Below are positions 3,149 through 62,965 of a stretch of 64,000 nt of DNA, piece after piece; positions within the stretch are counted from its first letter, which is position 1; every line of letters starts with the position of its first letter. Origin of the DNA: a candidate division WOR-3 bacterium (GTDB lineage Bacteria > Hydrothermota > Hydrothermia > LBFQ01 > DSFT01); NCBI GenBank assembly GCA_025060695.1, contig JANXBH010000002.1, forward strand, positions 82,996-146,995, read 5' to 3'. The notes beneath the pieces were generated by a model. That model did not search any database, had not been told where the DNA came from, and worked only from the letters and a program-made list of their open reading frames with translations. The position numbers and the translations under genes were made by a program.

Positions 3149-3166
3149 TTTTTTACCTCTTTTTTA

Positions 3167-3178
3167 AAAATTTTAAAG
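3167..3178 (-). promoter_or_regulatory. conserved intergenic palindromic promoter-like element (C)TTTAAAATTTT upstream of the adh start
   Basis: AAAATTTTAAAG on the plus strand; read on the gene strand it is CTTTAAAATTTT, then 21 nt containing GAGGT, then ATG. Confidence 0.5.
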
Positions 3179-3212
3179 TTAAAACAAATTTCCTACCACT
3201 TTAGTCAGAAAT

Positions 3213-3623
3213 TTAAATATCAAATATTACTATTGCATAAAAATTTCCATTTTCAGACCATATTTTCATCCTATGATAGGTCGGGCTTTTAATACCTATA
3301 CCTATCCTGTGTTTCTTTGCATTATAGTATTCTCCATATGCTCTGTAATTTAGTGTGTTATCCTTAATATTAACTTCAAAATCTTTGAATATAATTGCAC
3401 TTTTATCAAATTCAACTAAAAGGTTTTCTAAGAATAAATATAGCATTTCATTCATATCTTCAGAAACCACTTTTCCTTCTATAACTTCCTTATTTTCTAC
3501 ATCTTCTATATTTTCGCAGATAATTTTAAACATACCATATGCTGATAATTTAAACAATTCCTCAATACTTCTTGCAGATACCTTTATTCCAATATCTGCA
3601 GTATGCTCTATAAACTCAATCAT
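3213..3623 (-). CDS. archease
   Basis: N-terminal 'FIEHTADIGIKV' signature; about 136 aa. Confidence 0.65.
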   Translation of the reverse strand: MIEFIEHTADIGIKVSARSIEELFKLSAYGMFKIICENIEDVENKEVIEGKVVSEDMNEMLYLFLENLLVEFDKSAIIFKDFEVNIKDNTLNYRAYGEYYNAKKHRIGIGIKSPTYHRMKIWSENGNFYAIVIFDI

Positions 3624-4294
3624 ACTCCTGTAGTCCTATCCCATATAATAAGTTGTAGTCTCGGAGAAAAGTTAAACTTATACTTTTTACAAAGTTCAAC
3701 TACTATCAAACTCCTTTCTATAAATTCTTCCCTACTAGTTGAAAGCGGCATCAAGTAGATTAGTTCATTTGGTATATTAAATGGTTCTTTGTATGTTTCT
3801 ATCATTTCAATTACATCTTTTTCATTTTTTATTACGAATTTAAAAATAGCCCTTTTACTATTTAAAAAAAATTCTATTGCATCAGGATTTACTCTCAACT
3901 CTTCATTTACTAAACTATTTTTTAATTTTGGTGATGTATTAAAAAATACCTTATTCTCGTATGAAATAAGACCATAAGGCTTTCTTGTAGCTGATGTTTC
4001 TATTTCTATCATTCTAAAGCTATCCACAACTTCATATACAAGCTCATTTATGAAGTCATTATATATTAATGGTTCTCCACCTGTAATTACAAGATGAATA
4101 TCTTTATTAGACCTTTCTCTAATTGACTTAATAATTAATTCTCTATTTAATGGCTTTCCTCTCATCCAAATTTCCTTAGTATCGCACCAAATACATTTAA
4201 CGTCGCAACCTGCAAGTCTTAAAAAAAGTGCAGGAACTCCAGCAGTTTTACCTTCACCTTGAATTGAATAGAATATCTCTGAAACAGGTATCAT
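3620..4294 (-). CDS. queE: radical-SAM 7-carboxy-7-deazaguanine synthase (QueE-like)
   Basis: 'YSIQGEG...RLAGCDVKCIWCDT' cluster-binding N-terminus typical of QueE. Confidence 0.7.
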   Translation of the reverse strand: MIPVSEIFYSIQGEGKTAGVPALFLRLAGCDVKCIWCDTKEIWMRGKPLNRELIIKSIRERSNKDIHLVITGGEPLIYNDFINELVYEVVDSFRMIEIETSATRKPYGLISYENKVFFNTSPKLKNSLVNEELRVNPDAIEFFLNSKRAIFKFVIKNEKDVIEMIETYKEPFNIPNELIYLMPLSTSREEFIERSLIVVELCKKYKFNFSPRLQLIIWDRTTGV

Positions 4295-4920
4295 AAAAAT
4301 TTCCTTGAATAGTAATCCGCAAGTCTTATAGGCTCTGGCAATCTATAACCTCTTAAGGTATTAAGTACAACACTTAAAGCACTATTTAAATCAATAAGAT
4401 GACCCGGAGACACAAAGATTTCCTGTGTATCATCCTTACTTCTCAATGCATATGCAACAACTTTTCCATTAAAATACACTATTTCCGAACATCCTTTCTT
4501 CATACAGGGCTTTTTATATTTTCCTACAAGTAAACTCTTTGCGACACCAATAGTTGGTATATTCAATAGAACACCAAGATGACTTGCTATACCTAAACCT
4601 CTTGGATGACTAATACCATGTCCATCTACCATAATTAAATCAGGTTTTATACTTAGAGTTTTATAAACATTTAATAAATTAGGTGCTTCTCTAAAAGCTA
4701 AAAATCCTGGAATATACGGAAAATCTGTATGTGAAACTAAATTCTTAATCTCTACAACTCTTAGAGTTTTATATTCTAAAATAACAAATACAGAGTTTAT
4801 CAATTCTCCCCTAAATGCACTATCACATCCCGCAATATATTTAATTTCTGTATCCAAAGGCTTTAATATAACTTTTCTTCTTAACTCATTTTGCTTTTCT
4901 TTCAATACTTCAATGTCCAT
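4291..4920 (-). CDS. nfi: endonuclease V
   Basis: 'IAGCDSAF' plus overall length and pattern of the Nfi family. Confidence 0.7.
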   Translation of the reverse strand: MDIEVLKEKQNELRRKVILKPLDTEIKYIAGCDSAFRGELINSVFVILEYKTLRVVEIKNLVSHTDFPYIPGFLAFREAPNLLNVYKTLSIKPDLIMVDGHGISHPRGLGIASHLGVLLNIPTIGVAKSLLVGKYKKPCMKKGCSEIVYFNGKVVAYALRSKDDTQEIFVSPGHLIDLNSALSVVLNTLRGYRLPEPIRLADYYSRKFL

Positions 4921-5572
4921 AAAGACTTATAACCTGTCCTTTCACCATATATGCTTCATCTGAACATAAGTATGCTAAAAACTTTCCTACATCTTCAGCA
5001 CTTATATCTTTTCCAACTGTAGGAAGCAAAACTTCATTTATTCTAATTTTATACTCCTTTAACTCCTCAGATAATACCTTTGTTAGCATAATCTCACCTG
5101 CACCTGCAATAGAAATTAAACCTGCGTTTTTTAACGGTACATTTGCATGGAACCCACCAATGAGAACATATATACCCTCATTTCTCTCTACCATGTATTT
5201 TAAAAATGTTTTTGCACAAATGAAATGAGTAGTTAATCTATCAAACATTACATTTTCGTATGTTTTTAAATCCAAATCTATAATTCTAGCTCCTTCCCAC
5301 CAACTTCCGATTGAAGCTATTACTACATCAATTCTATTAAAGCTCTTTAATATCTCATCCCTTATCCTTATGGCATCCAATTCATCTCCTATATTTCCAT
5401 GAATAAGAAACAAGTTTTCAAAATCTTCTCTTAGCTTATCTAACTTTTCCTTAAATCTTGATGAAGTAATAACTTTTGCTCCCTCATCTAAAAAGACTTT
5501 TATAATACCTCTTCCTACTTTCCCGCTACCACCTGCAATATAAACAACCTTATCCTTTAGTTTCATAATCAT
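4910..5572 (-). CDS. SDR-family oxidoreductase
   Basis: N-terminal 'IAGGSGKVGRGI' dinucleotide-binding motif; about 220 aa. Confidence 0.65.
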   Translation of the reverse strand: MIMKLKDKVVYIAGGSGKVGRGIIKVFLDEGAKVITSSRFKEKLDKLREDFENLFLIHGNIGDELDAIRIRDEILKSFNRIDVVIASIGSWWEGARIIDLDLKTYENVMFDRLTTHFICAKTFLKYMVERNEGIYVLIGGFHANVPLKNAGLISIAGAGEIMLTKVLSEELKEYKIRINEVLLPTVGKDISAEDVGKFLAYLCSDEAYMVKGQVISLYGH

Positions 5573-5583
5573 AATTTTAAGGC

Positions 5584-6174
5584 TTATAGAATTTTAGTAG
5601 TATCTACCAAAAATATCACTTCTTTAAATCCAAAGCTTTTTATTAATTCCTTTAGAATTCTTCTTGCATTATCAACGGCAATTTTCTTAAAGTTGTCTTT
5701 TTCTAAGTCTTCCAATATAGCAATTTTTCCTTTTTGCAAGCTCTCGTTTATAAGTGCAATTCTATCACAAAAAAGAGTATTTTCTTTAAAAACTCTATGC
5801 GACTCAATTGAAACATCAAAATGAACATCTGGAACTGTTATATATACTGTATCCTCCTTAATCTTTATGTTGTCTTTTTTAACATTTTCTAAGTCTAAAT
5901 AAGCTATAACTATACCTTTTATAACAAGCGTTATACTACAAAAGTTTTCCTTCTTGTTCTTTACTATTTTTTGATATGGTATGGATAGTGAGCCTATTTT
6001 TTGAATTTTTTTAGCAGATGAAATTACTACATCTATATTTTGCACTTTTACTTGGTTCTTAAATTCTGAATAAAGTAGAATTAATATTACAAATGCCAAT
6101 ATTGATACATGTATTATATTTAGATTTTTTAATTTATTTTTCAAAAACCGCCTCCTTCTTAAAATTTGAAACAA
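5584..6174 (-). CDS. membrane-anchored hypothetical protein (DUF4230-like)
   Basis: basic N-terminus followed by a single TM helix; no catalytic motifs. Confidence 0.35.
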   Translation of the reverse strand: MFQILRRRRFLKNKLKNLNIIHVSILAFVILILLYSEFKNQVKVQNIDVVISSAKKIQKIGSLSIPYQKIVKNKKENFCSITLVIKGIVIAYLDLENVKKDNIKIKEDTVYITVPDVHFDVSIESHRVFKENTLFCDRIALINESLQKGKIAILEDLEKDNFKKIAVDNARRILKELIKSFGFKEVIFLVDTTKIL

Positions 6175-6643
6175 AAGCGGAGAGAAATTCTTTTAACCTA
6201 TCTCTCAGTTCGGACTGAATTTGAGAATCTGTTTCCATTAATGATAAATAAGCCCTTAAACTATCTTGAGCTATCTTTTCCACTTCCCTTCTGTTTTTTT
6301 GTGCACTAAGACTATAAAATAAAACATCTTCGTCATAGTTAGCAAGTTGAACATCATAATTACATACTTTAGCTTTTGGTAATTCTGAAAATATAACTTT
6401 TTTACCTTCAATTTTGTATTTTAAATCCTCAAGATTTACACAAAACCTTACATATGCTATTAGCTCAACTAAAAATCTATTCTCACCTATAAGCTTTGGA
6501 AAAGCTATATCCATGACGTACCTTGTCTTATACTCCATTAGGTATAGCTCCTTTATTTCTTTAATTTCATCAATTTTATCACTTTCCTCTCTACAAGCAT
6601 AAAAAGTAAAAAAACATAGAAATAACAAATTCAATTGTTTCAT
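6134..6643 (-). CDS. hypothetical lipoprotein
   Basis: signal peptide with lipobox 'FYAC'. Confidence 0.4.
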   Translation of the reverse strand: MKQLNLLFLCFFTFYACREESDKIDEIKEIKELYLMEYKTRYVMDIAFPKLIGENRFLVELIAYVRFCVNLEDLKYKIEGKKVIFSELPKAKVCNYDVQLANYDEDVLFYSLSAQKNRREVEKIAQDSLRAYLSLMETDSQIQSELRDRLKEFLSAFVSNFKKEAVFEK

Positions 6644-6697
6644 TAAATAAATTTTAAAGTAAATAGTCGCTATAACTGCTTTAAACTTTGAAAAATT

Positions 6698-7288
6698 ATG
6701 AGAGGATTTTTAATACTTTTAGGATTTTTTCTTCTTTTACTTTTTATTTTGATATTTCCAGTTATATCATTTTACAATGGTGCTATTAGTAAAAGAGAAG
6801 CAATTAAAAATCAGTTTTCTCAAATAGATGTTGTATTAAAAAGAAGATACGACCTAATACCTAATCTTATTCAAAGTGTAAAAGGAGTAGCTATACAAGA
6901 GCAAGAAGTATTTTTAAAAATAGCAGAAGCAAGAACTAAATATGGTTCTGCTATTACACCAGATGATAAAATAAAGGCAGCCAATGAATTAGAAGGATTA
7001 CTATCTAGACTTTTAGTGATAGTGGAAAATTATCCGCAACTTAGGTCATCTGAAAGTTTTTTAAAGCTTATGGATGAGTTAGCAGGGACAGAAAATAGAA
7101 TTTCAGTTGAAAGAAGAAGATATAATGAACTTGTAAGAGAATACAATACTTTTATTAAAACTTTTCCAAACAATATGTTAACAAAATTCTTTGGTTTTTC
7201 AGAGGCACAATATCTTGAAACACCAGAAGCAGAAAAAGAAGTACCAAAAGTTAATTTTGAAGATTTACGAGGAGGAACAAAAAAGTGA
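6698..7288 (+). CDS. lemA: LemA family protein
   Basis: N-terminal TM, then 'QIDVVLKRRYDLIPNLIQSVKG', the LemA core. Confidence 0.8.
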   Translation: MRGFLILLGFFLLLLFILIFPVISFYNGAISKREAIKNQFSQIDVVLKRRYDLIPNLIQSVKGVAIQEQEVFLKIAEARTKYGSAITPDDKIKAANELEGLLSRLLVIVENYPQLRSSESFLKLMDELAGTENRISVERRRYNELVREYNTFIKTFPNNMLTKFFGFSEAQYLETPEAEKEVPKVNFEDLRGGTKK

Positions 7289-10998: not shown

Positions 10999-11008
10999 TA
11001 CGAAAATT

Positions 11009-11680
11009 TTAAAATAATCTTAATAAATCCTCGCAATTTGAATACATGGTATAATACAAGGGAATTTCTAATAACTTCTTAAAAGTCTCAAAATTATAGA
11101 CTAATGCCCTCGTATTGTATAAACTTTCAAATATAGCCCTTTTTTTATCTTCAATATCCATCTCAAAAAGCACAAGTTTTGAACCATATTTAAAGTTAAT
11201 ATAGAACATCTTCTCAATCCTTGCACTATATGCAATTTTTGAAATATCCATAATCTTAAAAGCTGGTGAAAGGTAGCAAAATTCATCTTTTATAAATAAT
11301 AAATCCTCAGCAATATAAGAATAACCAAAATCCAATGACTTTCTTAAAATTGTAGTTTTTCCACTTGAAGGAGGTCCTATAAATACAATAGCATTTTTAT
11401 TATCCTTTGATATAGCAGATGCATGTAAAATTAAGTTTTCAGTAGAATTTATAGCATAAGCATTTCTCAAAAAATAAATCAGGTTTTGATATGCATTTTC
11501 TTTATAGTTAACATATACTACTTTCCTATCCTCATGAAATCTTGAAATTCCGTTATAACCTTTAACAAACACTATTTCATCAATACTTTGTGATTTTATT
11601 TCATAAAACCTTAAAAAAGAATTAGTTAAATCAAAATAGGAGCAAATTTTTATATTCTTTGAAAATAGTCTAACTTTCAA
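11009..11680 (-). CDS. HPr-kinase C-terminal-domain-like P-loop protein (standalone)
   Basis: 'LHASAISKDNKNAIVFIGPPSSGKTT' resembles the HprK P-loop region; there is no N-terminal HprK domain. Confidence 0.45.
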   Translation of the reverse strand: MKVRLFSKNIKICSYFDLTNSFLRFYEIKSQSIDEIVFVKGYNGISRFHEDRKVVYVNYKENAYQNLIYFLRNAYAINSTENLILHASAISKDNKNAIVFIGPPSSGKTTILRKSLDFGYSYIAEDLLFIKDEFCYLSPAFKIMDISKIAYSARIEKMFYINFKYGSKLVLFEMDIEDKKRAIFESLYNTRALVYNFETFKKLLEIPLYYTMYSNCEDLLRLF

Positions 11681-11785
11681 TCTTTTAAAATAATAGTGCT
11701 AAATTTTAAAGTATTTTCTAAATCTTCTTGTTAGTTAAAACTCAATACTTTATAATTTTCGGAAATCCTAACAGGAGGTCGCTGT

Positions 11786-16378: not shown

Positions 16379-17272
16379 TTAAAGTTTAAAGTTATTCCTA
16401 ATATAATTTTTAAAAATTTGTATATCTTCACTAATTACTCTTATACTTCCTGTCTTATGCCTAAATATAAGAGTAAAATTTTTAGCTAAGACATCATCAG
16501 CGAAGTCCATGGCAACTTGCATATTCTTCGAGTTTGAATTTACTATGATTGAAGTGTTTTCCTCATTCATGCTATTTCTTTCTATAAGTATATCTATATC
16601 TTCTTTTTCTTCAAAAAATCTTGAGTGAAATGTTGAAAGACTTTGATTACTAATTGTGATTTTCAAAGTTTTTCCTTTATAGTCTAAGTTTAAATATTCT
16701 ATATTTTTAAGCTTTTCCTCATATATCTTTTCTTCTTCTTCTATTTCCTCTTGTGCTTTCTGGGTTAAACCCTTTGCCATTAATTCCTCATATAATCTTT
16801 CCACAAATTTAGAATAATCCAAATCTTGTGATAGTAAATTCAATATAATCCTTCCAATTTCTTCATTTGGTTCAATTCTCAATATAGTCTTTATTCTCTT
16901 TACGAGTAAACTATCCTTTTTTACTAAACCTTCAGATTCTGCCCTTGGAAAACCAAACCTATCTATAATATCTATTGCATGAAGTGCACTATTATTGATG
17001 TTAATTTCTGGAAAAAATTTTTTTAACACTAAAATAATACTGGAATTTATGTTTAAGTCTTGATGATGGTCAAAATTATTTAAATTAGGGTCATAAGAAT
17101 TCCCAACATCTATGAGTATAATTCCACTGTCGTTTAGATATTCTGATGGAACATTTTGAGGATAAATATATTCTATAGTTGCATCTGGATATAAATACTT
17201 TAAAATAGAAATTGCTAAGAAGTCATCTAAATGACGAGGTGGTAAATGACTAACTATTTTCTTTACTACCAT
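16379..17272 (-). CDS. MYG1/UPF0160 family metal-dependent hydrolase
   Basis: 'DVGNSYDPNLNNFDHHQ' motif. Confidence 0.55.
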   Translation of the reverse strand: MVVKKIVSHLPPRHLDDFLAISILKYLYPDATIEYIYPQNVPSEYLNDSGIILIDVGNSYDPNLNNFDHHQDLNINSSIILVLKKFFPEININNSALHAIDIIDRFGFPRAESEGLVKKDSLLVKRIKTILRIEPNEEIGRIILNLLSQDLDYSKFVERLYEELMAKGLTQKAQEEIEEEEKIYEEKLKNIEYLNLDYKGKTLKITISNQSLSTFHSRFFEEKEDIDILIERNSMNEENTSIIVNSNSKNMQVAMDFADDVLAKNFTLIFRHKTGSIRVISEDIQIFKNYIRNNFKL

Positions 17273-21013: not shown

Positions 21014-21038
21014 AAAATTTTAAACTTTAAAATTTTAG
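21014..21038. promoter_or_regulatory. two overlapping copies of the palindromic element between divergent bamA and sod
   Basis: AAAATTTTAAACTTTAAAATTTTAG; each half-site sits 5-6 nt from its gene's start codon. Confidence 0.5.
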
Positions 21039-24637: not shown

Positions 24638-25283
24638 AAACATTGAAAAAATATTAAGTATTTTAAAAAAGGAATATAAAAATTGGGATGAAAATGTAGC
24701 AACGGTAAAACAAATGATAAAAGTACATAACTTTGAACCATTTAAAAGCCTAATTATGGCAATTATTTCAACTCAAACAAAAGATAGTATAACTTCCAAG
24801 GTGTCCGAAAAACTATTTCAAATTGCAAACAGTCCAAAAGAAATTTTAAAAATTCCTGATAAGGAATTAGAAAATACTTTAAAATCTGTTTCATTTTACA
24901 AAAGAAAAGCGAAGTATATAAAAGACACTTGTAGAATTATCATAGAAGAATACAAAAACAAAATACCCTCTAATTTTGACAAGCTAATAAAATTACCGGG
25001 TGTAGGAAGAAAAGTTGCAAATGTATTTCTATCGCATGTATATAAGAAAGATGTTATAGCTGTTGATACACATGTCCATAGAATATCAAATAGATTAAAA
25101 TGGGTAAATACAAAAAATCCTAACCAAACCGAAAAAGAGTTATATAAAGTAGTGCCAAAGCGTCTATGGAGAGATATAAATTTATATCTTGTAGCATTTG
25201 GACAAGCAATATGTTCATATAAACCAAAGTGTAGCATTTGTCCTATATATGAACTTTGTCCCTATGAAAATAAAAGACTTTAA
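24609..25283 (+). CDS. nth: endonuclease III-family HhH-GPD DNA glycosylase
   Basis: 'LPGVGRKVANVFL' HhH-GPD motif; C-terminal Cys cluster 'CSYKPKCSICPIYELC'. Confidence 0.7.
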   Translation: MKMGQSSQGKNIEKILSILKKEYKNWDENVATVKQMIKVHNFEPFKSLIMAIISTQTKDSITSKVSEKLFQIANSPKEILKIPDKELENTLKSVSFYKRKAKYIKDTCRIIIEEYKNKIPSNFDKLIKLPGVGRKVANVFLSHVYKKDVIAVDTHVHRISNRLKWVNTKNPNQTEKELYKVVPKRLWRDINLYLVAFGQAICSYKPKCSICPIYELCPYENKRL

Positions 25284-25294
25284 AATTTTTCTCT

Positions 25295-26017
25295 TTGGAT
25301 ATACTAAAAGCACAAGGACTCGTTAAAAAATATGGAAAGAGAACAGTAGTAAAAGGTATTAATATTGAAGTTTGTACAGGTGAAGTAGTAGCACTTCTTG
25401 GACCAAATGGTGCAGGAAAAACAACAACATTCTATATGATTATGGGAGCAATAAAACCAAACAAAGGGAAGGTATTTCTCGACGATAAAGAAATTACGAG
25501 ACTTCCAATGTACAAAAGAGCAAGACTTGGTATAGGTTATTTACCACAAGAAGCATCTATTTTTAGAAATCTTAAAGTATGGGATAATGTATATAGCGTC
25601 CTTGAAATGAAGAAAATGAAAAAAATAGAAAGAATAGAAAAGACCAAAAAGCTTTTAGAAATGTTGAATGTTTTAAAAGTAAAAGATAATAAGGGTTACC
25701 AGCTTTCGGGTGGTGAAAGAAGAAGAGTTGAAATAGCAAGAGCACTTGCATTAGACCCGAAGTTCTTACTATTAGATGAACCTTTTACAGGAATTGACCC
25801 AAAAACAAGAGAAGAAATACAAGATATCATAATTCAGTTAAAGAATATTGGAATTGGTATTTTAATTACAGACCATAACGTAAGGGAAACACTTGAAATT
25901 ACCGATAGGGCTTATATTATATACGATGGAGAGATTTTGATTGAGGGAACATCTAAGGAATTAATAGAAAATCCAAGAGTTAGAGAGCTATATATTGGTT
26001 GGAGATTTAAAATTTAG
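25295..26017 (+). CDS. lptB: LPS export ABC transporter ATP-binding protein
   Basis: 'GPNGAGKTT', 'LSGGERRRVEIAR' and 'LLLDEPF'; 240 aa. Confidence 0.8.
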   Translation: MDILKAQGLVKKYGKRTVVKGINIEVCTGEVVALLGPNGAGKTTTFYMIMGAIKPNKGKVFLDDKEITRLPMYKRARLGIGYLPQEASIFRNLKVWDNVYSVLEMKKMKKIERIEKTKKLLEMLNVLKVKDNKGYQLSGGERRRVEIARALALDPKFLLLDEPFTGIDPKTREEIQDIIIQLKNIGIGILITDHNVRETLEITDRAYIIYDGEILIEGTSKELIENPRVRELYIGWRFKI

Positions 26018-26589: not shown

Positions 26590-26601
26590 CTTTAAAATTT
26601 T
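26590..26601 (+). promoter_or_regulatory. CTTTAAAATTTT element 6 nt upstream of the ferredoxin ATG
   Basis: exact 12-mer with no SD between motif and ATG (leaderless-type configuration). Confidence 0.5.
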
Positions 26602-29418: not shown

Positions 29419-30313
29419 TAAATTTTAATGCTCTTTTAAAAAAGCTATATGCGTTATTGTAGAAGAAATTGTTTACATATTCATCAGGTAAATATTTTTT
29501 TAGCTCTAAGTATAGATTTTTTAAATCATTTGGCTTACTTAAATTTTCTATCTTATGCTCTTGTGAAATTCCATAAAAATCACTTCCTATACATAAGGTA
29601 TTTGGGTATTTTTCAATGAGTTTCGAAACATACTTTGCTATGTCTGTCAGTGTTGCTTTTGAGAGAAATATATCCGCAAACGCTATACCAACGATACCAT
29701 TTATCTTTGAAATTTCATAAATCATATCTTCACTAACATTTCTTTTTATATTAGAAATTTCTCTTATACCAGTATGCGATACGAAGATATTTTGTTTAAA
29801 GTTTTCTATTACATTGAAGAAAGTTCTATCGCTTGCATGCGAAAGGTCAATAGTCATATTTAAACTAATAGCTGTTTTGACTACATCATAGCCTAAATCA
29901 GTTAATCCATAGTCATTTTTACTATTCCAATGAGGACAAATTAAATTATCCTTATTCCAAACAAGCCCTAAAACTTTTATTCCAAGTCTATTCATTATCC
30001 TAACTTCATAAGTACTTCTTACAAAATAAAGTCCCTCAACTGCTAATATTATATTTCCTTCATCAAACTCCTCTATACCTTTAATAATTTTCAAATTGAA
30101 CTCTTTTTCTATTTCATATGCAATTTCAATACCTCTTAATGTATAAATTAGTGGCTCTTCCACGTCCAATATTTTATAAAAACCCCTAAAAGGGAATATA
30201 GCAAATACGAATTTATCTATATTTAAGTTCTTATATTCATTCAGAATACTTACGTTATTAGGATTGTCAATAATATAGTAAAGTAAGTCCTGATGCAAAT
30301 CAAAAACTTTCAT
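29402..30313 (-). CDS. membrane dipeptidase (peptidase M19)-like
   Basis: 'DLHQDL', 'DLSHAS', 'VSHTG' and 'GSDFYG' parallel the M19 motifs. Confidence 0.55.
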   Translation of the reverse strand: MKVFDLHQDLLYYIIDNPNNVSILNEYKNLNIDKFVFAIFPFRGFYKILDVEEPLIYTLRGIEIAYEIEKEFNLKIIKGIEEFDEGNIILAVEGLYFVRSTYEVRIMNRLGIKVLGLVWNKDNLICPHWNSKNDYGLTDLGYDVVKTAISLNMTIDLSHASDRTFFNVIENFKQNIFVSHTGIREISNIKRNVSEDMIYEISKINGIVGIAFADIFLSKATLTDIAKYVSKLIEKYPNTLCIGSDFYGISQEHKIENLSKPNDLKNLYLELKKYLPDEYVNNFFYNNAYSFFKRALKFSDVKD

Positions 30314-31188
30314 GAGGAAAGATTTTCATAAATCTGCACTATCTGAAATTTATTAAATATATAGCTCTTTCTGCAATACCTACATACAACCTCAATTTTA
30401 TTATTTAGTTCAAATTCCTTAAGCATTTCTTCTTTTGGAATAAACGAAATCGCATCTTTTATACTACTTTCATTACACCAGCATTTATAGTATGCATAAG
30501 TTTGGTTGATAAAATTCCAACTTTTTGTAATATTTGAAATTAAATCATATTCATCACTTTCTTCCTCTATTAGTTTCGTAATAGGCCCTATACTTTTTAT
30601 TCTTTTCTCAATATCCAACAATTCACTCTCACTTGTCCCCGGTCTTGCATATAGAAGAATACCTCCTGAGTTTTTTATAGAACCGTCTACATCCACTAAT
30701 ACTCCAAGTGATACCGCACACGGTAATTGTTCAGAACTATATAGAAAATAAGCTATATCCTCTGCAATTTCACCACTCACTATTTCTGAAATACTTTGAT
30801 ATATCTCATTTTCAAAATACCTATAAAAATAGATTAAACCACCACCTACTACATCACTAACTGGCAACTTTTTATCTTTAATTTCATAGTTTGGATTGGG
30901 ATTTCTTATGAAAGCCCTATAGTTCTGCTTCATATCTGTCTCAGTAGTAATTTCTGAAATTTCACCACTTGTTATAAATTGCATTACTAATCTTCTGACA
31001 TTGGTATAGCTAAATGCATTTGACAGTAAAACAAGTCCTGTCAATGCTCTCCCAAGCGCTGCGGAGGCAGGAGGATTCGTCTTGTGAATACTACAAGCTT
31101 CTTTAATTATATCTGTAGTTATAGTACTAACTATTATAAAGCTTCCATACTTAACTTTTAAAACTTTAGCCATAAATAGTGTATTCAA
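30310..31188 (-). CDS. hslO: redox-regulated chaperone Hsp33
   Basis: 'AALGRALTG' and C-terminal zinc centre 'CWC...CRYC'; the likely true start is the ATG at about 31173 (the TTG at 31188 overlaps the promoter motif). Confidence 0.8.
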   Translation of the reverse strand: MNTLFMAKVLKVKYGSFIIVSTITTDIIKEACSIHKTNPPASAALGRALTGLVLLSNAFSYTNVRRLVMQFITSGEISEITTETDMKQNYRAFIRNPNPNYEIKDKKLPVSDVVGGGLIYFYRYFENEIYQSISEIVSGEIAEDIAYFLYSSEQLPCAVSLGVLVDVDGSIKNSGGILLYARPGTSESELLDIEKRIKSIGPITKLIEEESDEYDLISNITKSWNFINQTYAYYKCWCNESSIKDAISFIPKEEMLKEFELNNKIEVVCRYCRKSYIFNKFQIVQIYENLSS

Positions 31189-31277
31189 ATTTTAAAGTAA
31201 TTCTTTACTTTTACACTATCTACCCCCCTCTTGATAATATCTTACCTTTGCCTTAAAATTTAAAACTGAGTGGAGGG

Positions 31278-34079: not shown

Positions 34080-34091
34080 CTTTAAAATTTT
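34080..34091 (+). promoter_or_regulatory. CTTTAAAATTTT element 3 nt upstream of the pncA ATG
   Basis: exact 12-mer. Confidence 0.5.
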
Positions 34092-40652: not shown

Positions 40653-41916
40653 TGAATGTTACTTCCTTCTCAATATCCTCCGTCGGCAACACAAGTATCG
40701 GTATTTCTATAGGTTGTTTTATTAAGTGATTTGAAAGCTTGTCCTTTACTTGAACTTTTATGTTTATAGTACCATAGTAGTCTTTCGGTGTGGTAAGCTT
40801 AAGAACAAACTCTCTCTTATTAGACTTATATCCTCCATCAAATTTAACTTGGGGATTTACAGTTATATCTATGACATAATCGCAAAGATTATTAAATTTT
40901 ATGTTAATTTCTCCTTCACTTCCTGAAGCAATAAATATAGGGACTTGAATTTCAGTAATCTTTGCATCAAATGTTTCATTTATGTATACTTCCCTTTTTA
41001 TCCTTTTACCATTTCTTATTTCTGTTATAATATAAGGCAGAAAATTTTGAACTTCCGAAAATGCTAAATATAACTCTTCAAGCATTTCACTTGCGCTATT
41101 AAATGTCTCATCCTCCATTTCTAAGGCTTTGAGAATAAACCTTTCAACTTTTTCTGGTATGTTTTGATTTATATATCTCGGAAGCTCTAATTTATTTGAA
41201 AGTTTCTCCGCATGTGTCCTTGCAATATCCTCTTCATCATATGGTGGCTTTCCTGTAAGCATGTAGTATAACAAAGCTCCAACACTATATAAATCCGCCT
41301 CATATGGAGTAATATCTAAACCCCTTAGGACTCTTGGAGAAATATACACAGGAGCACTAAGGAAACCTGATAACTTCAATCTTCTTATAGCCTTTTGAGC
41401 AATATGCCCAAGTCCAAAATCAGTTATAACAACATTCCCATCTTTAAATCTAATATTTTCAGGTTTTAAATTTTTATGTGCAATACCATGACCGTGAGCA
41501 TAAACCAATGCATTTAATATGTCCTCTGTAATACGAAGTGCATCTTCCAAAGATAACTTTCCCTTTTTCTTAACTAAGCTCCTTAAATCCTCCTCTAAAT
41601 AATCCACTACAAAGTAAAATATCTTACCTTCCATTTCCTTATCAATATCTAAAATCCAATTTATATTGGGATGACTTTCAAGAGCTGTGATATGCCTTAT
41701 TTGTTCCAAAATCTCACCTGCAATCTCCTTTAATATTTGAACATCCTTTTGGTCTCTTATTAGGTCAATTCTTAATATTTTAACTATTACGTCTTTATGT
41801 AAAAACTGATGTACAGCCTTATATACATGAAATATTGGACTTACCGCAATCTCTTCCTTTAATAAGTATTTTCCACTAAAAACTTTGTTTGCAAACAAAT
41901 TTTTATGCATTTTCAA
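40645..41916 (-). CDS. Hanks-type serine/threonine protein kinase with C-terminal domain of unknown function
   Basis: 'HKNLKPENI', 'DFGLG' and 'APE'-like 'SPR'; the likely true start is the ATG at 41910. Confidence 0.8.
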   Translation of the reverse strand: MKMHKNLFANKVFSGKYLLKEEIAVSPIFHVYKAVHQFLHKDVIVKILRIDLIRDQKDVQILKEIAGEILEQIRHITALESHPNINWILDIDKEMEGKIFYFVVDYLEEDLRSLVKKKGKLSLEDALRITEDILNALVYAHGHGIAHKNLKPENIRFKDGNVVITDFGLGHIAQKAIRRLKLSGFLSAPVYISPRVLRGLDITPYEADLYSVGALLYYMLTGKPPYDEEDIARTHAEKLSNKLELPRYINQNIPEKVERFILKALEMEDETFNSASEMLEELYLAFSEVQNFLPYIITEIRNGKRIKREVYINETFDAKITEIQVPIFIASGSEGEINIKFNNLCDYVIDITVNPQVKFDGGYKSNKREFVLKLTTPKDYYGTINIKVQVKDKLSNHLIKQPIEIPILVLPTEDIEKEVTFNA

Positions 41917-41946
41917 AATTTTAAAGTTTATGCTGTAAAATTTTAG
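41915..41946. promoter_or_regulatory. element copies for the divergent Ser/Thr kinase (CTTTAAAATTTTG, 4 nt from ATG 41910) and the surface-redox operon (TAAAATTTTAG, 4 nt from ATG 41949)
   Basis: sequence read directly. Confidence 0.45.
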
Positions 41947-46319: not shown

Positions 46320-46335
46320 AACTTTAAAATTTAGC

Positions 46336-47339: not shown

Positions 47340-47351
47340 CTTTAAAATTTT
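47340..47351 (+). promoter_or_regulatory. CTTTAAAATTTT element 5 nt upstream of the proS ATG
   Basis: exact 12-mer. Confidence 0.5.
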
Positions 47352-50075: not shown

Positions 50076-50087
50076 CTTTAAAATTTT
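50076..50087 (+). promoter_or_regulatory. CTTTAAAATTTT element about 28 nt upstream of the cbaA ATG, with an intervening AGGAGG SD
   Basis: exact 12-mer; the spacing fits a -10-like element plus a short 5' UTR. Confidence 0.5.
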
Positions 50088-52486: not shown

Positions 52487-52487
52487 C

Positions 52488-52598: not shown

Positions 52599-52601
52599 AG
52601 C

Positions 52602-57390: not shown

Positions 57391-57713
57391 GACTTAATCT
57401 TTAATTGAACTCCAAGCGACATTCTTATAACCTCACTTATTTGCTCCTCTACTGAAACCTTGTGCTTAGTATCAAAGCTAAGCAGAAAAAACAAAGGGTT
57501 AGTGCTTTCATATACTATCAATTTTGTTCTATGATCAAAATACTTTTCATAATCGTCTTCTATAATTACAAGACCATAGTTTTTTTCTTCATAAATCTTT
57601 CTTAATAATTTTCTAACTTCAGATGGCTCACTCAGAGTGATATAATCTACACCTACAAGTGAAAACCCGGGTTTATAATCACTTTGACCTATTACTAAAA
57701 CTTTTTGTTTCAA
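57387..57713 (-). CDS. hypothetical protein
   Basis: ORF coupled to deoA. Confidence 0.3.
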   Translation of the reverse strand: MKQKVLVIGQSDYKPGFSLVGVDYITLSEPSEVRKLLRKIYEEKNYGLVIIEDDYEKYFDHRTKLIVYESTNPLFFLLSFDTKHKVSVEEQISEVIRMSLGVQLKIKS

Positions 57714-57739
57714 AGTGTGAAAATTTTAAAGCACAAAAA

Positions 57740-58928: not shown

Positions 58929-59387
58929 TTATCCTCTCCTTACATAGTCAACCCAATAAAATATTATTCCAAATGCAACAGAAACGTTCAAACTTTGTAC
59001 TTTTCCATATTGAGGTATTTTAATAAGAACATCAGACAAGTCAAGAATTTCCTTATCTATACCTTTACTTTCGTTCCCAAAGATAATTATAGTTTTTTGA
59101 TTGTAGTTATAGTTCCTATAGTTTATCGCATTTTCGGACAAACTCGTGGCGACAATTTTATATTCTTGTTTTTTCATATCTAAGAGAAATTCCATAGGTT
59201 CCTCTACAATTTCAATCCTTACCCATTTATGTGAACCTTTGCTAATTTTTTCATTTATCACAAACGGTTTATCTTCAGTTATATAAACTTTTTCTATACC
59301 AACAGCATCTGCTGTCCTTACAATTGCAGAACAATTTTGAGGATTTTCAAGCTTGTATAAATATGGAAATATACCAACTAATTTCAA
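58929..59387 (-). CDS. trmL: SpoU-class tRNA/rRNA 2'-O-methyltransferase (TrmL-like)
   Basis: 152 aa with a SPOUT-knot C-terminus ('IPQYGKVQSLNVSVAFGI'). Confidence 0.65.
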   Translation of the reverse strand: MKLVGIFPYLYKLENPQNCSAIVRTADAVGIEKVYITEDKPFVINEKISKGSHKWVRIEIVEEPMEFLLDMKKQEYKIVATSLSENAINYRNYNYNQKTIIIFGNESKGIDKEILDLSDVLIKIPQYGKVQSLNVSVAFGIIFYWVDYVRRG

Positions 59388-59393: not shown

Positions 59394-59405
59394 AAAATTT
59401 TAAAG
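59394..59405 (-). promoter_or_regulatory. CTTTAAAATTTT element 6 nt upstream of the trmL start
   Basis: exact 12-mer on the gene strand. Confidence 0.45.
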
Positions 59406-59409: not shown

Positions 59410-59907
59410 CTAAATAATAACTATTTTTCCTTCAGTACCTACAATAATTCCGGCTTTATTTTCTAAATAAAGTTTTCCAGCTAAAAGGCAAATTATAGCA
59501 TCTTTCTCATCCTTGATTAAATTTTGTTTCTCTAAACTATAACCAAGACCATTTATAAATTCAAAAAAATGCCCATTAAAAGCAGATGGAAATGTTTCAA
59601 AAACCAAAATACCATGCATTTCTAAAATATTCTTAATGCTAATTCCTCTCAGTGCAAGTTCTTTCATATGTTTAAAAGTTATAGGCAGAACATTTATTCT
59701 CCTTTTCTTTAAGTAAATATCAATATCCCTAAAGTGTTTGTTTTTTCTTGGAAGTGAAAGAGGAGCATCTATTAGGACTATACTAAAGTTTTTCGAAAAA
59801 TTAATAATTTCTTCATCATGAAACAGAGATTTCAACCTTATTGTCTTGTTATCAAAGTATGCTAAATAAGAGTATCTCTTTACCGAAAGGTCTATACCAA
59901 GCACCAC
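59410..59907 (-). CDS. hypothetical protein (RNase-H-like fold, DUF429-like)
   Basis: N-terminal 'VLGIDLS'; weak call. Confidence 0.3.
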   Translation of the reverse strand: MVLGIDLSVKRYSYLAYFDNKTIRLKSLFHDEEIINFSKNFSIVLIDAPLSLPRKNKHFRDIDIYLKKRRINVLPITFKHMKELALRGISIKNILEMHGILVFETFPSAFNGHFFEFINGLGYSLEKQNLIKDEKDAIICLLAGKLYLENKAGIIVGTEGKIVII

Positions 59908-60088
59908 TTTTAAATTTTAAATTACTAAGGAAAAATTTAACCTTCCTATTGAGTTTAAAGTGATTTTTAAAGTTTTTGATGAAGATTTGGAAATTGCTTT
60001 TTAAAAATTAATAATTAGTCTAAAGACCTTCCAAGGGCGAAAATTTGTAGCGAGTAAAAAAGAGTTAGAAAACTTAAAAAATTGTATA

Positions 60089-60100
60089 ACTTTAAAATTT
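60089..60100 (+). promoter_or_regulatory. CTTTAAAATTTT element 3-4 nt upstream of the dnaX GTG
   Basis: exact 12-mer. Confidence 0.5.
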
Positions 60101-60104
60101 TAAT

Positions 60105-61493
60105 GTGAGTTTAGCTGTAAAGTATAGACCTAAAACATTTGATGAACATATTGGACAAGAGCACATTGTAAAAGCTTTAAGAAAAGCACTTAAAGAAGGA
60201 AAAATTTCTCAGGCATATCTATTTGCAGGTCCAAAAGGAGTCGGAAAAACTACAACTGCAAGAATATTGTCTAAAGCACTTAATTGCGAAAGTTCGAGCA
60301 AAATAACAGATAATCCTTGCGGAATATGTAAATCCTGTATAGACATAGAAAATTCAAGACATGTAGATGTTATAGAAATAGATGGTGCAAGTAATAGAGG
60401 TATAGATGAAGTAAGGAATATTAGAGAAAACATAAAGAACCTGCCAATAAGAGGAAGATATAAAGTATACATAGTAGACGAAGTGCACATGCTAACAATA
60501 GAAGCCTTCAATGCACTATTAAAAACACTTGAAGAACCACCAAAACATGTAGTATTTATATTCGCTACAACTGACCCACAAAAAATACCTCCAACTGTCC
60601 TATCAAGACTCCAAAGATACGACTTTAGACCAATTCCCATATTTGAAATTATTCAAAGATTAAATTACATAGTAAAGAAGGAAAATATAGATATTGAAGA
60701 TAGAGCAATTGAGGAAATTGCAAGAAGGAGTGATAGTAGTCTAAGAGATGCTATATCTATACTTGAACAGATGACTATGTTTATTGATGGAAAGATTACT
60801 CATAAGGATGTTATTAATATTTTAGGTTCAGTAGAATCAGAACTAATGGAAGACTTACTAAGTAGTATTCTTTCAGGAAATGTAAATAGAGCAATAGATA
60901 TAACGAATGAAATTTTACAAAAGAACCTGTCTATATTAGATTTTATTAGGGAGTTTAATACTTTTCTATTTGAAAAGTTCAAGGAAATTATCAATAATCC
61001 TTCTAAAGACTATACAAAGGAAGACCTAATGCAACTTCTAAATACCGCACTTGAAATGGAAAAAGTAGTAAAATACTCTATAACACCAAAAATATGGTTA
61101 GTGTTTTTTATATCTAAAATGTGCTATATACCAAGAACTGTTCAGCTATTACAAATACTTCAAGATTATAATTTAGTGTATAGGAAAACTAAAAGGGAAG
61201 AAGAAAAGAAAAAAGAAACCATTAAAGATAAGCTATATAACCATGTTATAAATCATAAGAAATCTCAAATTGATATATTTCTTACCGCTCAAATAGAAGA
61301 AGAAAAAGAAAGTATTATTTTTACGTTTAGTGATGCCAATTCATATAGTGAAGCAAAATTGAAATTAGATGAAATAAGAAAGGAACTAAGCGCTTTGGGA
61401 TATAACTATAAAAATGTTGAAATTAAACTAAAAGAAGAAAATCCAAAGAAAGTAAAACTTATAAATGAGCTTTCTCTAAGGAGGATATCATAG
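60105..61493 (+). CDS. dnaX: DNA polymerase III subunit gamma/tau
   Basis: 'YRPKTF', 'GPKGVGKTT', Zn module 'CGICKSC', 'VYIVDEVHML' and 'SRLQRYDF'; GTG start. Confidence 0.9.
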   Translation: MSLAVKYRPKTFDEHIGQEHIVKALRKALKEGKISQAYLFAGPKGVGKTTTARILSKALNCESSSKITDNPCGICKSCIDIENSRHVDVIEIDGASNRGIDEVRNIRENIKNLPIRGRYKVYIVDEVHMLTIEAFNALLKTLEEPPKHVVFIFATTDPQKIPPTVLSRLQRYDFRPIPIFEIIQRLNYIVKKENIDIEDRAIEEIARRSDSSLRDAISILEQMTMFIDGKITHKDVINILGSVESELMEDLLSSILSGNVNRAIDITNEILQKNLSILDFIREFNTFLFEKFKEIINNPSKDYTKEDLMQLLNTALEMEKVVKYSITPKIWLVFFISKMCYIPRTVQLLQILQDYNLVYRKTKREEEKKKETIKDKLYNHVINHKKSQIDIFLTAQIEEEKESIIFTFSDANSYSEAKLKLDEIRKELSALGYNYKNVEIKLKEENPKKVKLINELSLRRIS

Positions 61494-62104
61494 AGAGTAT
61501 TATAAAAGATTGGCAAGAAAATAACTATAAAATCATAGGAAATATAAGGAAAGTAATAAAAGATGAGAAAATAATTAATGCCTTTGAAAAAATTCCAAGA
61601 AATCTTTTTGTTGAAAATGAACCATTTGAAGATAAGGCGGTTCACCTGAAATTAAATCAAACATCTTCTCAGCCAAGCTTAATAGCAAAGATGCTTGAAC
61701 TACTTGAAATTAAACCTACAGATACTATCCTTGAAATTGGTACAGGAAGCGGTTATTTAACAGCTATTTTATGTGAAATTTCTCATTTTGTTTATTCTAT
61801 TGATATATTTAGTGAGTTCATAGAAGAAACGGACAAAAAGTTAAAACTATTAGGTTATAAGAACTATAAACTACTTGTAAGAGACGGAAATTATGGTTTA
61901 GCAGAATTTTCACCGTATGAAAAAATAATAGCTTCCGCATATTTTGAAAGTATTCCGACGGCATTGTTAGAGCAGTTAACTATTGATGGTATATTAGTTT
62001 TACCTGTTGGTAATAAACAATTGCAATATATTTACAAGGTTATAAAAAAAGAAGCTGTTTTATTTGTACCTATTGTTCCTTTTGATAAACAAGGTCAAAA
62101 CTAA
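61490..62104 (+). CDS. pcm: protein-L-isoaspartate O-methyltransferase; no canonical start for the conserved N-terminal about 65 codons (candidate ATA/ATT start after AGGAGG)
   Basis: Between 61496 and 61690 the frame reads '...IPRNLFVENEPFEDKAVHLKLNQTSSQPSLIAKMLELL...EIGTGSGY', continuous into the ORF-track ATG at 61691. The frame opens at 61469 with no ATG, GTG or TTG. Confidence 0.6.
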   Translation: MESIIKDWQENNYKIIGNIRKVIKDEKIINAFEKIPRNLFVENEPFEDKAVHLKLNQTSSQPSLIAKMLELLEIKPTDTILEIGTGSGYLTAILCEISHFVYSIDIFSEFIEETDKKLKLLGYKNYKLLVRDGNYGLAEFSPYEKIIASAYFESIPTALLEQLTIDGILVLPVGNKQLQYIYKVIKKEAVLFVPIVPFDKQGQN

Positions 62105-62555
62105 TATTTACAGTATCAGAAACCTCTATAAATCCAAACTTTGGACGAGTTATTTGAAAGTCCGAAAGTAAAATCTTAAACTCACCACTAACAAATGTGA
62201 AGTTATTTTCAAATTTCATATTTATTGGGACAGATATATATCTTTCTATACCTGAGATTTTCAATTTTCCAAAAATTGCATTTTTTACTAAACTATCTGG
62301 GAAAAATTCAATATACTCATATTTATCCGCTTTTATTGACCTATACATTTGAGCATCCCTAATACCATTTCCTGTTTTTAATGACTTTGAAACCACTCTT
62401 ACATAACCTGAAATATAAATACTATCGTATTGAATTTTTGAATCTATACTATTTGCTATACCGTTTACTTGATGAAGTGTAGCATTAAGAAAAAATGAAA
62501 TTTTTGATTTTGCATTAAGAAGAGTATAGGTTTGACTAATAAAAAAAATTAGCAT
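62070..62555 (-). CDS. YceI-like domain protein
   Basis: signal peptide plus beta-barrel lipid-binding-like pattern. Confidence 0.5.
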   Translation of the reverse strand: MLIFFISQTYTLLNAKSKISFFLNATLHQVNGIANSIDSKIQYDSIYISGYVRVVSKSLKTGNGIRDAQMYRSIKADKYEYIEFFPDSLVKNAIFGKLKISGIERYISVPINMKFENNFTFVSGEFKILLSDFQITRPKFGFIEVSDTVNISFDLVYQKEQ

Positions 62556-62921
62556 TTATTGTATATATAAATATCTTCCTGCTTGACCACCGGGATAATG
62601 ACAAGCTCTACAACCATTAGCATTACTCACTGATACATTCATCTGTAAGTATGAAGAACCATCTATTTTCTCAATCCTTGCCTGATAAGGAAAACATATA
62701 TTACCTACTATATTAAATCTTCCAAGTGTATCAGTTGTATCGGAAAATATATTGTCTTTAGCATCTATTACTTTTACAACTACATTCTTTGCCCTTTTAC
62801 TATAAGATGAGTCAATTGGGTCGGTCGACACAAAGTATTCAAAACTTACACTTTGACAATTGTCAGATGACTGTCTTGAGCAAGCAAGAAAAAATACAAA
62901 AAATAGAAAAATCCTATGCAT
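62556..62921 (-). CDS. small lipoprotein with a CxxCH haem-c binding motif
   Basis: lipobox 'FLAC'; 'NGCRACHYPGG'. Confidence 0.45.
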   Translation of the reverse strand: MHRIFLFFVFFLACSRQSSDNCQSVSFEYFVSTDPIDSSYSKRAKNVVVKVIDAKDNIFSDTTDTLGRFNIVGNICFPYQARIEKIDGSSYLQMNVSVSNANGCRACHYPGGQAGRYLYIQ

Positions 62922-62923
62922 AA

Positions 62924-62960
62924 TTTAAATTTTAAAGTTAGTTTTGGCTTTAAAATTTTT
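62924..62960. promoter_or_regulatory. inverted pair of elements serving the divergent cytochrome-c lipoprotein (minus) and lipoprotein 62966 (plus)
   Basis: TTTAAATTTTAAAG ... CTTTAAAATTTTT, each 5-8 nt from its ATG. Confidence 0.5.
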
Positions 62961-62965
62961 GGACC

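Follow-up and report, generated by a model that had tools for sequence, protein, structure and literature searches.

The question raised by this locus is what a short, nearly invariant AT-rich word is doing immediately in front of so many genes. The locus is a 64,000-nt stretch of contig JANXBH010000002.1 (positions 82,996 to 146,995, forward strand; assembly GCA_025060695.1) from a candidate division WOR-3 bacterium, hereafter the window, and the word is the 12-mer CTTTAAAATTTT. An earlier note, made from the letters alone, had proposed that it is a promoter element resembling a -10 hexamer and that it implies many leaderless mRNAs. That proposal fits every computational test run, its leaderless part by way of geometry, and we consider it likely that the element is the housekeeping promoter of a low-GC WOR-3 lineage, consisting of one block of about 13 bp and producing mostly leaderless mRNAs.

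The window has a GC content of 29-31%, and a greedy longest open reading frame (ORF) call finds 72 genes covering about 98% of it, leaving 1,447 non-coding bases (2.3%). Against an expectation of 0.44 from dinucleotide-preserving shuffles, CTTTAAAATTTT is found 13 times, a number reached in 0 of 100 shuffles, which bears out the claim that the word is far above chance; with up to one mismatch there are 29 matches where 9.5 are expected. All 13 exact copies and 11 of the 16 one-mismatch matches lie in the non-coding 2.3%, leaving 0 of 13 and 5 of 16 in the coding sequence of the window. Two of the 11 are mirror readings of the palindromic core of the word, and the 22 independent intergenic sites all face the start of the adjacent downstream gene, as had been asserted. 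When every gene start is inspected with up to two mismatches allowed, 29 sites precede gene starts, so that the element stands close upstream of about a third of the window genes; of the 25 gaps that measure 10 nt or more, 20 carry it by our reading of the gap list. The 19 approximate positions listed in the earlier note each correspond to a real site within 0-3 nt, but the list was incomplete, about 10 sites having been missed (25278, an exact copy, and 46322, 11003, 11748, 26005, 29419, 16380, 6679, 5571 and 31251). The gene names attached to it are broadly right (adh, nicotinamidase-like, dnaX, proS, fsa/tal, ferredoxin, Ser/Thr kinase, SpoU/TrmH-type methyltransferase, cytochrome oxidase I, bamA, sod and hslO). 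Divergent gaps had been thought to hold one palindrome serving both genes. Instead, all seven hold two separate oriented copies, one per gene, as at 21014 (-)/21025 (+), 41915 (-)/41933 (+) and 62926 (-)/62948 (+).

Alignment of the 29 window sites confines the information to 13 contiguous positions, about 14.8 bits against the AT-rich background, with the consensus R-C-T-T-T-A-A-A-A-T-T-T-(T/A). The central TAAAAT has the TAnnnT form of a -10 hexamer, and its T-12, A-11 and T-7 (motif positions 4, 5 and 9) are invariant in 29 of 29 sites, while natural variants of the hexamer include a perfect TATAAT at 11748 and TAAACT at 6679 and 16380. Palindromy is restricted to the 8-nt core AAAATTTT, the flanks CTT and TT(T/A) being asymmetric. 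The 14-nt palindromic extension TTTAAAATTTTAAA that had been described has 0 exact matches, and the AAAG said to follow the 12-mer is not found as a signal in the 29 aligned sites.

Outside the block no conserved signal is found, positions -44 to -1 included, whether the 29 sites of the window are aligned or 156 pooled from its relatives. For a -35 TTGACA at 16-18 nt, the mean best match is 2.59 of 6 compared with 2.58 at random positions, and a generic bipartite sigma-70 scan returns 105 sites versus 109.7 ± 10.9 in shuffles. A canonical bipartite sigma-70 promoter (-35, 16-18 nt, -10) is accordingly rejected on its -35 component, and a -35 or UP-like element is rejected on the combination of no upstream information, no TTGACA excess and no bipartite enrichment. 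The extended -10 of the E. coli type (TGnTATAAT) is rejected as well, in that positions -15 to -13 read C-T-T in 25-28 of the 29 sites, not TG; the sole TG variants (CTGTAAAAT at 41933, and one in the relative L047 described below) are in a different register from an extended -10. A structured RNA or known RNA family as the identity of the element was also rejected, Rfam at gathering thresholds giving no match in the window. After masking the element, only Shine-Dalgarno k-mers (GGAGGT, AGGAGG) stay enriched upstream of genes.

In 25 genes no more than 9 nt, typically 3-6 nt, separate the end of the element from the start codon, and a Shine-Dalgarno site is present in 0 of these 25 compared with 13 of 42 motif-less genes (Fisher p = 0.0012), in agreement with the claim that many start codons lie close by with no Shine-Dalgarno. 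Five further genes have the element 15-28 nt upstream. A distal class with a Shine-Dalgarno in between had been described, and this stands for four of the five (adh, M23 peptidase, prkA-like and cytochrome oxidase I, all with GGAGG-type sites), but not for the HprK-related gene, in whose leader none was found. The Shine-Dalgarno scan itself scored 3 of the 5, the prkA GGAGGG falling just outside the scanned window. Before internal genes with overlapping stop and start codons the element is absent. A distance-to-start histogram had been suggested as a check, and in the window and relatives together 56 of 97 non-redundant sites have a long-ORF start 2-9 nt downstream of the 12-mer, compared with 4.5% of random positions, with peaks at 4 and 6 nt (a 5-12 nt range after TAAAAT, with peaks at 7 and 9).

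NCBIfam profiles align from residue 1-3 for ProS, Fsa/TalC, FdxA, LptB, V-ATPase F, NadB and DnaX, all with starts next to the motif, and the Sod product begins with a KRREFLK Tat-type (twin-arginine) signal, which argues that the motif-adjacent starts are real N-termini. In the SDR oxidoreductase gene (4910-5572), it is the second ATG, 4 nt past the motif, that fits the profile N-terminus. Non-ATG starts are called for 14 of 25 genes next to the element versus 7 of 47 elsewhere. Some are artefacts of taking the longest ORF, for example the TTG inside the motif at 41916 and at 31188; that such starts are not the true ones, as had been argued, is plausible for the kinase at 41916, which has an ATG 4 nt past the motif, and ambiguous for hslO at 31188. 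By case reading, at least four TTG starts look genuine (sod, lptB, V-ATPase F and bamA), as do the GTG starts of dnaX and nadB. TTG codons stand 3-6 nt past the block at 21041, 25295, 57713, 59387 and 21008, and GTG codons at 60105 and 10998.

The window has no tRNA genes that we could find, and so the question of whether untranslated genes carry the element was taken to relatives. L004, a relative fetched for its proS gene and therefore an unbiased case, has an exact 12-mer 6 nt upstream of the 5' end of tRNA-Thr. A metagenome scan with the motif plus a tRNA D-arm word returns many low-GC, motif-rich contigs with the element 6-9 or 12-13 nt before tRNAs; gap classes 7-13 appear three each among the matches listed, and we used the sequences and not the distance histogram. 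Orthologues of window genes are present on two of these contigs, at 73% identity on L118 and 52% on L151, which ties the motif-rich contigs to the lineage. Versions with one or two mismatches, which the search pattern could not have selected, stand at the same distance before tRNAs Thr-cgt (L110), Ala-ggc (L152) and Arg-cct (L200). On contig L154, a complete 16S rRNA gene has an exact 12-mer 61 nt upstream of the mature 5' end and 10 nt upstream of a long processing stem that pairs the 5' and 3' flanks of 16S, so that transcription must begin in that 10-nt interval. This stem is about 21 bp (9720-9742 and 11352-11372), and a tRNA-Ala(cgc) at 11391-11463 follows the 16S gene with no promoter block of its own, consistent with co-transcription. 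For the RNase P RNA gene on L183, which lies behind a coding gene, no motif is found directly upstream, and co-transcription is probable.

Taking window and relatives together, the element is found upstream of every kind of transcription unit, stable RNAs included, and the spacing after TAAAAT is 6-9 nt to start codons, at least 9 nt to tRNA 5' ends and 13 nt to the 16S processing stem. Its presence before tRNA and rRNA genes, and the use of Shine-Dalgarno sites where it is far from the start, point to a transcription signal and not a translation signal. The 16S rRNA of L154 ends in CACCTCCTTT, indicating that the lineage has a normal anti-Shine-Dalgarno, which was another of the checks proposed.

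The closest ProS relatives are metagenome-assembled genomes (MAGs) labelled candidate division WOR-3 or Candidatus Hydrothermia; NCBI taxonomy now names the phylum Caldifarciminota and the class Caldifarciminia (Ca. Hydrothermia). Four of them (L001-L004; ProS 75-79% identical at the protein level, 26-28% GC) keep the element upstream of proS. A WOR-3 MAG with 54% GC, L047 (ProS 70% identical), has CTGTAAAATTTC, then 5 nt, then the ATG of proS. Conservation across relatives therefore spans 26-54% GC, and the retention of an AT-rich block in L047 indicates that the signal survives a large shift in base composition. Block forms precede several other L047 genes (CCTTTAAAATT, CTGTAAAATTTC, CCTTATAATTTC and CATTAAAATTTC, at 3439-3485, 4006-4050, 5144-5190 and 7065-7081 on the plus strand and 5361 on the minus strand), a GGAGG leader being present in some cases.

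More distant WOR-3 genomes (L005, L007, L009 and L072; 44-50% GC) have at the same position before proS a TTGACT-N17-TATAAT or TATACT-N7-ATG. The coordinates of two of these bipartite promoters are 2365-2427 in L005 and 9941-10003 in L072, and in mid-GC WOR-3 and Stahlbacteria MAGs the form TTGAC(T/A/G)-N16-18-TAnnnT also stands 5-8 nt before the ATG or GTG of other genes. In a control set of 55 proS loci, most other phyla have GGAGG, including most Aquificota, Goldbacteria and several Acidobacteria, and a start-proximal TAnnnT with no Shine-Dalgarno is found only in Actinobacteria and in all WOR-3 loci. From these comparisons leaderless expression of proS looks phylum-wide in WOR-3, a bipartite promoter at leaderless distance is probably the ancestral state of the element, and the low-GC Hydrothermia clade appears to have replaced it with a one-block promoter.

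In the arrangement we propose, the block R-CTT-TAAAAT-TT(T/A) would be read by the primary RNA polymerase holoenzyme with TAAAAT as the -10 hexamer, CTT (-15 to -13) and TTT (-6 to -4) supplying the binding energy normally given by a -35. Transcription would start about 6-8 nt past TAAAAT, or 3-5 nt past the 12-mer, giving about 25 of roughly 30 units a leader of 0-3 nt with no Shine-Dalgarno and translation by the leaderless route: where the start codon follows at 3-4 nt, its first base would be the first transcribed base, and where it follows at 5-6 nt there would be a 1-3 nt leader, often with ...ACT before the start codon. The five distal units would have leaders of about 10-25 nt, with a normal GGAGG ribosome-binding site in four. 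Operon-internal genes would be served by Shine-Dalgarno sites or by coupling through overlapping stop and start codons, and tRNA precursors would carry leaders of roughly 3-10 nt, RNase P RNA being present in the lineage (L183). The start site, the recognition by a primary sigma and the mode of translation initiation are what we infer from the sequence comparisons. A primary sigma gene was sought in all collected loci, with none in the WOR-3 loci and a sole match in an Aquificota locus.

Several points count against this proposal. The 0-3 nt leader is a reading of the geometry. With TAAAAT as the hexamer, start codons of the class with 6 nt after the 12-mer lie 9 nt past the hexamer, rather far for a strictly leaderless mRNA. 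The register is not fixed by alignment either, in that MAFFT places the TATAAT of the distant relatives over AATTTT and not over TAAAAT; the TATAAT and TAAACT variants and the invariance of T-12, A-11 and T-7 favour the TAAAAT register. A near-invariant 12-mer is unusual for a housekeeping -10, which is normally degenerate. The metagenome tRNA contigs were selected for having both motif and tRNA and are biased, so that the unbiased non-coding cases are the L004 tRNA, the mismatch-variant tRNAs and the L154 16S gene. The excess of TTG and GTG starts beside the block is unexpected if the mRNAs are leaderless. Leaderless translation in E. coli strongly prefers AUG.

A bolder version may be drawn from the same data, one that we think less likely than not. 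In this strongly compacted lineage, associated with thermophiles, the holoenzyme would have given up -35 recognition entirely and would read one near-invariant 13-bp block that fits into gaps of 11-30 nt, with more than 80% of units starting at most 3 nt from the start codon, genes with UUG or GUG starts (lptB, sod, V-ATPase F, dnaX and nadB) included. If that is true, leaderless or near-leaderless initiation here tolerates non-AUG codons, contrary to the E. coli rules.

Among alternatives to a promoter read by the primary holoenzyme, the one that survives best, itself improbable, is that RNA polymerase is recruited by a DNA-binding protein peculiar to the lineage, for which the block is the binding site; a global activator, a nucleoid protein or an atypical initiation factor would be examples. 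A single block with some 14.8 bits is far less degenerate than an ordinary -10, the core AAAATTTT is palindromic like many protein-binding sites, and there is no -35. Against this, the element is strictly directional with flanks that are not symmetric, its distance to gene starts matches the geometry from a -10 to a start site, its variation obeys the TAnnnT rule, and, like the promoter of a primary sigma, it serves every class of housekeeping gene, those for rRNA and tRNA among them.

Quite improbable is that polycistronic precursors are cut endonucleolytically at the element, which would be an AU-rich processing signal just upstream of each mRNA, tRNA and rRNA. In favour, the element is AU-rich, stands upstream of protein-coding and RNA genes without distinction, and occurs where co-directional genes are tightly packed; the window also has few terminator-like hairpins (3 versus 6.6 expected), making long read-through transcripts plausible. 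What the idea does not accommodate is that divergent genes only 32-54 nt apart each have an outward copy with no other conserved promoter signal, that the invariant positions are exactly those of a -10 hexamer with one variant a perfect TATAAT, and that the position of the element equals that of bona fide -35/-10 promoters in distant WOR-3 genomes.

Very improbable, in our estimation, is a translation signal acting at the RNA level, namely an AU-rich ribosome or S1 site that works in place of a Shine-Dalgarno, with the promoters being elsewhere. The location 3-6 nt before start codons is where a Shine-Dalgarno usually lies, the two are mutually exclusive, the element is often found between co-directional genes only 11-26 nt apart, and many adjacent starts are the TTG or GTG that leaderless translation usually disfavours. 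Untranslated tRNA genes and the 16S rRNA operon, on the other hand, have the same element at the same distance, four of the five distal genes have a normal GGAGG between element and start, and internal genes with overlapping stop and start codons lack the element. Moreover, the 32-nt divergent gaps have no other promoter-like motif, and in distant relatives the corresponding position is taken by a full sigma-70 promoter. A chance low-complexity word, in a 29-31% GC window and made of A, T and one C only, can be dismissed with 13 copies versus 0.44 expected, every one of them within the non-coding 2.3% and facing its downstream gene, and with the element kept upstream of proS and other genes in a 54% GC relative.

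To place the promoter reading among known systems, the nearest is the GeneMarkS-2 group C, which has a Pribnow box 6-8 nt from the starts of first genes and ribosome-binding sites on internal ones; it is frequent in Actinobacteria and Deinococcus-Thermus with a leaderless share of typically 25-50% (PMC6028130). The window resembles group C in having a TAnnnT box 6-9 nt before first-gene starts that lack a Shine-Dalgarno (the fixed distance being seen at 56 of the 97 sites), with Shine-Dalgarno sites used by internal and leadered genes (13 of 42 motif-less and, as scanned, 3 of 5 leadered) alongside the anti-Shine-Dalgarno of the L154 16S, and the Actinobacterial proS loci of the control set show the same -10-proximal pattern. 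It differs in belonging to WOR-3, in having the box within a nearly invariant 12-13-nt block with no -35 rather than a degenerate hexamer, in a leaderless share of about 25 of 30 motif-driven units, if the geometry is read as above, and in frequent TTG and GTG starts.

Promoters with no -35 are known from the extended -10 TGnTATAAT of E. coli and from -10-only promoters in Mycoplasma, Helicobacter and Campylobacter, whose genomes are AT-rich and, in Mycoplasma, small. Here too, strength would rest on the -10 region and adjacent bases, but with CTT at -15 to -13 instead of TG at -15/-14, a T-rich TTT discriminator and much tighter conservation. The sigma-70 promoters of L005, L007, L009 and L072 share with the window the proS gene, the order of -10, 5-8 nt and ATG, and the lack of a Shine-Dalgarno, and differ in their TTGAC(T/A/G) at 16-18 nt and ordinary TATAAT or TATACT, the low-GC clade apparently having lost the -35 and fixed the flanks of the -10.

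The primary-sigma promoter of Bacteroidetes has TTTG at -33 and TAnnTTTG at -7. The likeness is a TA followed by a T-run into the discriminator region, and the window encodes a protein with a type IX secretion system (T9SS) sorting tail. Differences are that GGAGG sites are used here and the anti-Shine-Dalgarno is kept in the 16S rRNA of a relative. A Bacteroidetes sigma-A promoter was rejected, in that TAAAATTT(T/A) does not fit TAnnTTTG and there is no TTTG at -33. The non-Shine-Dalgarno ribosome-binding site of group B (Bacteroidetes-type) was rejected by the absence of the element before genes with overlapping stop and start codons and its presence before tRNA and rRNA genes. An archaeal TATA/BRE (TFB recognition element) promoter, with TATA about 22-27 nt before the start, was rejected in that the element ends 3-6 nt from starts and the organism is bacterial, as BamA and LptB in the window and the bacterial 16S rRNA of L154 indicate.

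Leaderless bacterial genomes of group C and promoters with no -35 are already known as kinds, and what is new is the lineage, the consensus, its near-invariance, the absence of a -35 in comparison with sister lineages, the start-proximal share of about 25 of 30 units and the TTG and GTG starts. A 2025 paper reported strain sy37 (60.6% GC) as the first member of the phylum in pure culture, and it does not mention promoters or leaderless mRNAs (PMC12285271). A literature search pairing WOR-3 with 'leaderless' found no paper, and one with a 10-mer of the motif gave only unrelated papers among the matches listed.

The promoter reading would be a first testable model of gene switching and translation in candidate phylum WOR-3 (Caldifarciminota), and the motif should help to locate gene starts and delimit transcription units in these MAGs. 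Such starts could be misplaced by standard gene finders that expect a Shine-Dalgarno site, and the longest-ORF starts of several genes are probably wrong, for example the kinase at 41916 and yjbQ. The comparison within WOR-3 suggests that a bipartite promoter gave way to a one-block promoter within a single phylum, in parallel with low GC and very dense coding. It may serve as a natural experiment on the effect of shrinking intergenic space on promoter architecture, and the TTG and GTG starts beside the promoter offer a concrete test case for the rules of leaderless translation.

Table 1. Sites of the promoter-like block in the window, with the gene each precedes (window coordinates; gene extents in parentheses; distances counted from the end of the site to the start codon).
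Positions	Strand	Site	Gene	Relation to gene start
3167..3178	-	CTTTAAAATTTT	adh (2123-3148)	18 nt upstream of ATG, AAGAGG Shine-Dalgarno between; leadered class
5571..5582	-	variant CCTTAAAATTAT	SDR oxidoreductase (4910-5572)	overlaps first ATG
6648..6659	-	CTTTAAAATTTA	DUF4230 gene (6134-6643)	4 nt before ATG; one of two in divergent gap
6679..6690	+	variant CTTTAAACTTTG	6698-7288 (weak MamQ match, NCBIfam)	7 nt before ATG
11003..11014	-	TTTTAAAATTTT	nadB (9571-10998)	4 nt before GTG; TAA stop of upstream gene inside motif
11700..11711	-	CTTTAAAATTTA	HprK-related (11009-11680)	19 nt before TTG
11748..11759	+	CTTTATAATTTT (contains TATAAT)	M23 peptidase (11786-12682)	26 nt before ATG, GGAGG between
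16380..16391	-	variant CTTTAAACTTTA	nuoC (15951-16373)	6 nt before ATG; overlaps end of upstream gene
21014..21025	-	GTTTAAAATTTT	bamA (18756-21008)	5 nt before TTG
21025..21036	+	CTTTAAAATTTT	sod (21041-21754)	4 nt before TTG; separate copy abutting bamA copy, 32-nt divergent gap
25278..25289	+	CTTTAAAATTTT	lptB (25295-26017)	5 nt before TTG; upstream TAA stop is motif positions 4-6
26005..26016	+	ATTTAAAATTTA	hypothetical (26023-26559)	6 nt before GTG; inside end of lptB
26590..26601	+	CTTTAAAATTTT	ferredoxin (26608-26901)	6 nt before ATG
29419..29430	-	CATTAAAATTTA	yjbQ (29026-29418)	directly before GTG-ATG; ATG 3 nt past motif
31186..31197	-	CTTTAAAATTTG	hslO (30310-31188)	TTG inside motif, next ATG 12 nt downstream; start ambiguous
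31251..31262	+	CCTTAAAATTTA	prkA-like (31278-33122)	15 nt before ATG, GGAGGG Shine-Dalgarno between
34080..34091	+	CTTTAAAATTTT	nicotinamidase/isochorismatase family (34095-34679)	3 nt before ATG; right after upstream stop codon
39375..39386	-	CTTTAAAATTTT	fsa/tal (38724-39368)	6 nt (CAAACT) before ATG
41915..41926	-	CTTTAAAATTTT	Ser/Thr kinase	TTG 41916 inside motif; ATG 41910 4 nt past motif
41933..41944	+	CTGTAAAATTTT	T9SS-tail protein (41949-43727)	4 nt before ATG; second copy, 32-nt divergent gap
46322..46333	+	CTTTAAAATTTA	46336-47334	2 nt before TTG or 8 nt before ATG
47340..47351	+	CTTTAAAATTTT	proS (47357-49036)	5 nt before ATG
50076..50087	+	CTTTAAAATTTT	cytochrome oxidase subunit I (50116-51735)	28 nt before ATG, AGGAGG between
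57720..57731	-	CTTTAAAATTTT	V-type ATPase subunit F (57387-57713)	6 nt before TTG
59394..59405	-	CTTTAAAATTTT	SpoU/TrmH-type methyltransferase (58929-59387)	6 nt before TTG
59911..59922	-	ATTTAAAATTTA	59410-59907	3 nt before GTG
60090..60101	+	CTTTAAAATTTT	dnaX (60105-61493)	3 nt before GTG
62926..62937	-	CTTTAAAATTTA	62556-62921	4 nt before ATG
62948..62959	+	CTTTAAAATTTT	BamE-like lipoprotein (62966-63349)	6 nt before ATG; second copy, 44-nt divergent gap

Some further features of the window touch on the block. Stop codons of upstream genes lie inside it by way of the TAA of CTTTAAAATTTT at 25281-25283 and 11006-11008, and in several other places the block directly follows a stop codon, as at 34080, giving an overlap of promoter and coding sequence. 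In two true gaps that precede genes, 52487-52601 and 27244-27295, the block has no good copy. The first leads to the universal stress protein gene (52602), which has a GGGGG site; the second leads to the gene at 27296, upstream of which there is only the degenerate GATTTTAAATTTA. A different sigma factor or class of promoter may serve these two genes. At 197 nt, the divergent gap upstream of dnaX (59908-60104) is far longer than any other true non-coding stretch of the window; a promoter block stands at either end of it, it holds a short AAGG...CCTT hairpin, and Rfam at E ≤ 1 gives no match over 59800-61800, which covers this gap.

Downstream of dnaX, the pcm gene (protein-L-isoaspartate O-methyltransferase; 61494-62104, +) seems to have no canonical start codon. 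Its frame is open from just past the dnaX stop (61491-61493), so that an apparent 197-nt 'gap' there is coding; the Pfam PCMT alignment begins at frame residue 18, and the earliest in-frame ATG, GTG or TTG is at 61691 (residue 66). Candidates for the start are ATT or ATA at 61499/61502, or re-initiation coupled to dnaX termination. The T9SS-tail protein (41949-43727, +) is large and secreted, with a choice-of-anchor J domain and a C-terminal T9SS (Por_Secre_tail) sorting domain, T9SS secretion being typical of Bacteroidetes. Two of the motif-rich relatives have matches to a CRISPR direct-repeat family (Rfam CRISPR-DR2), at 3613-3642 in L112 and 5709-5738 in L187, and in L112 a promoter block at 3465 lies near the match.

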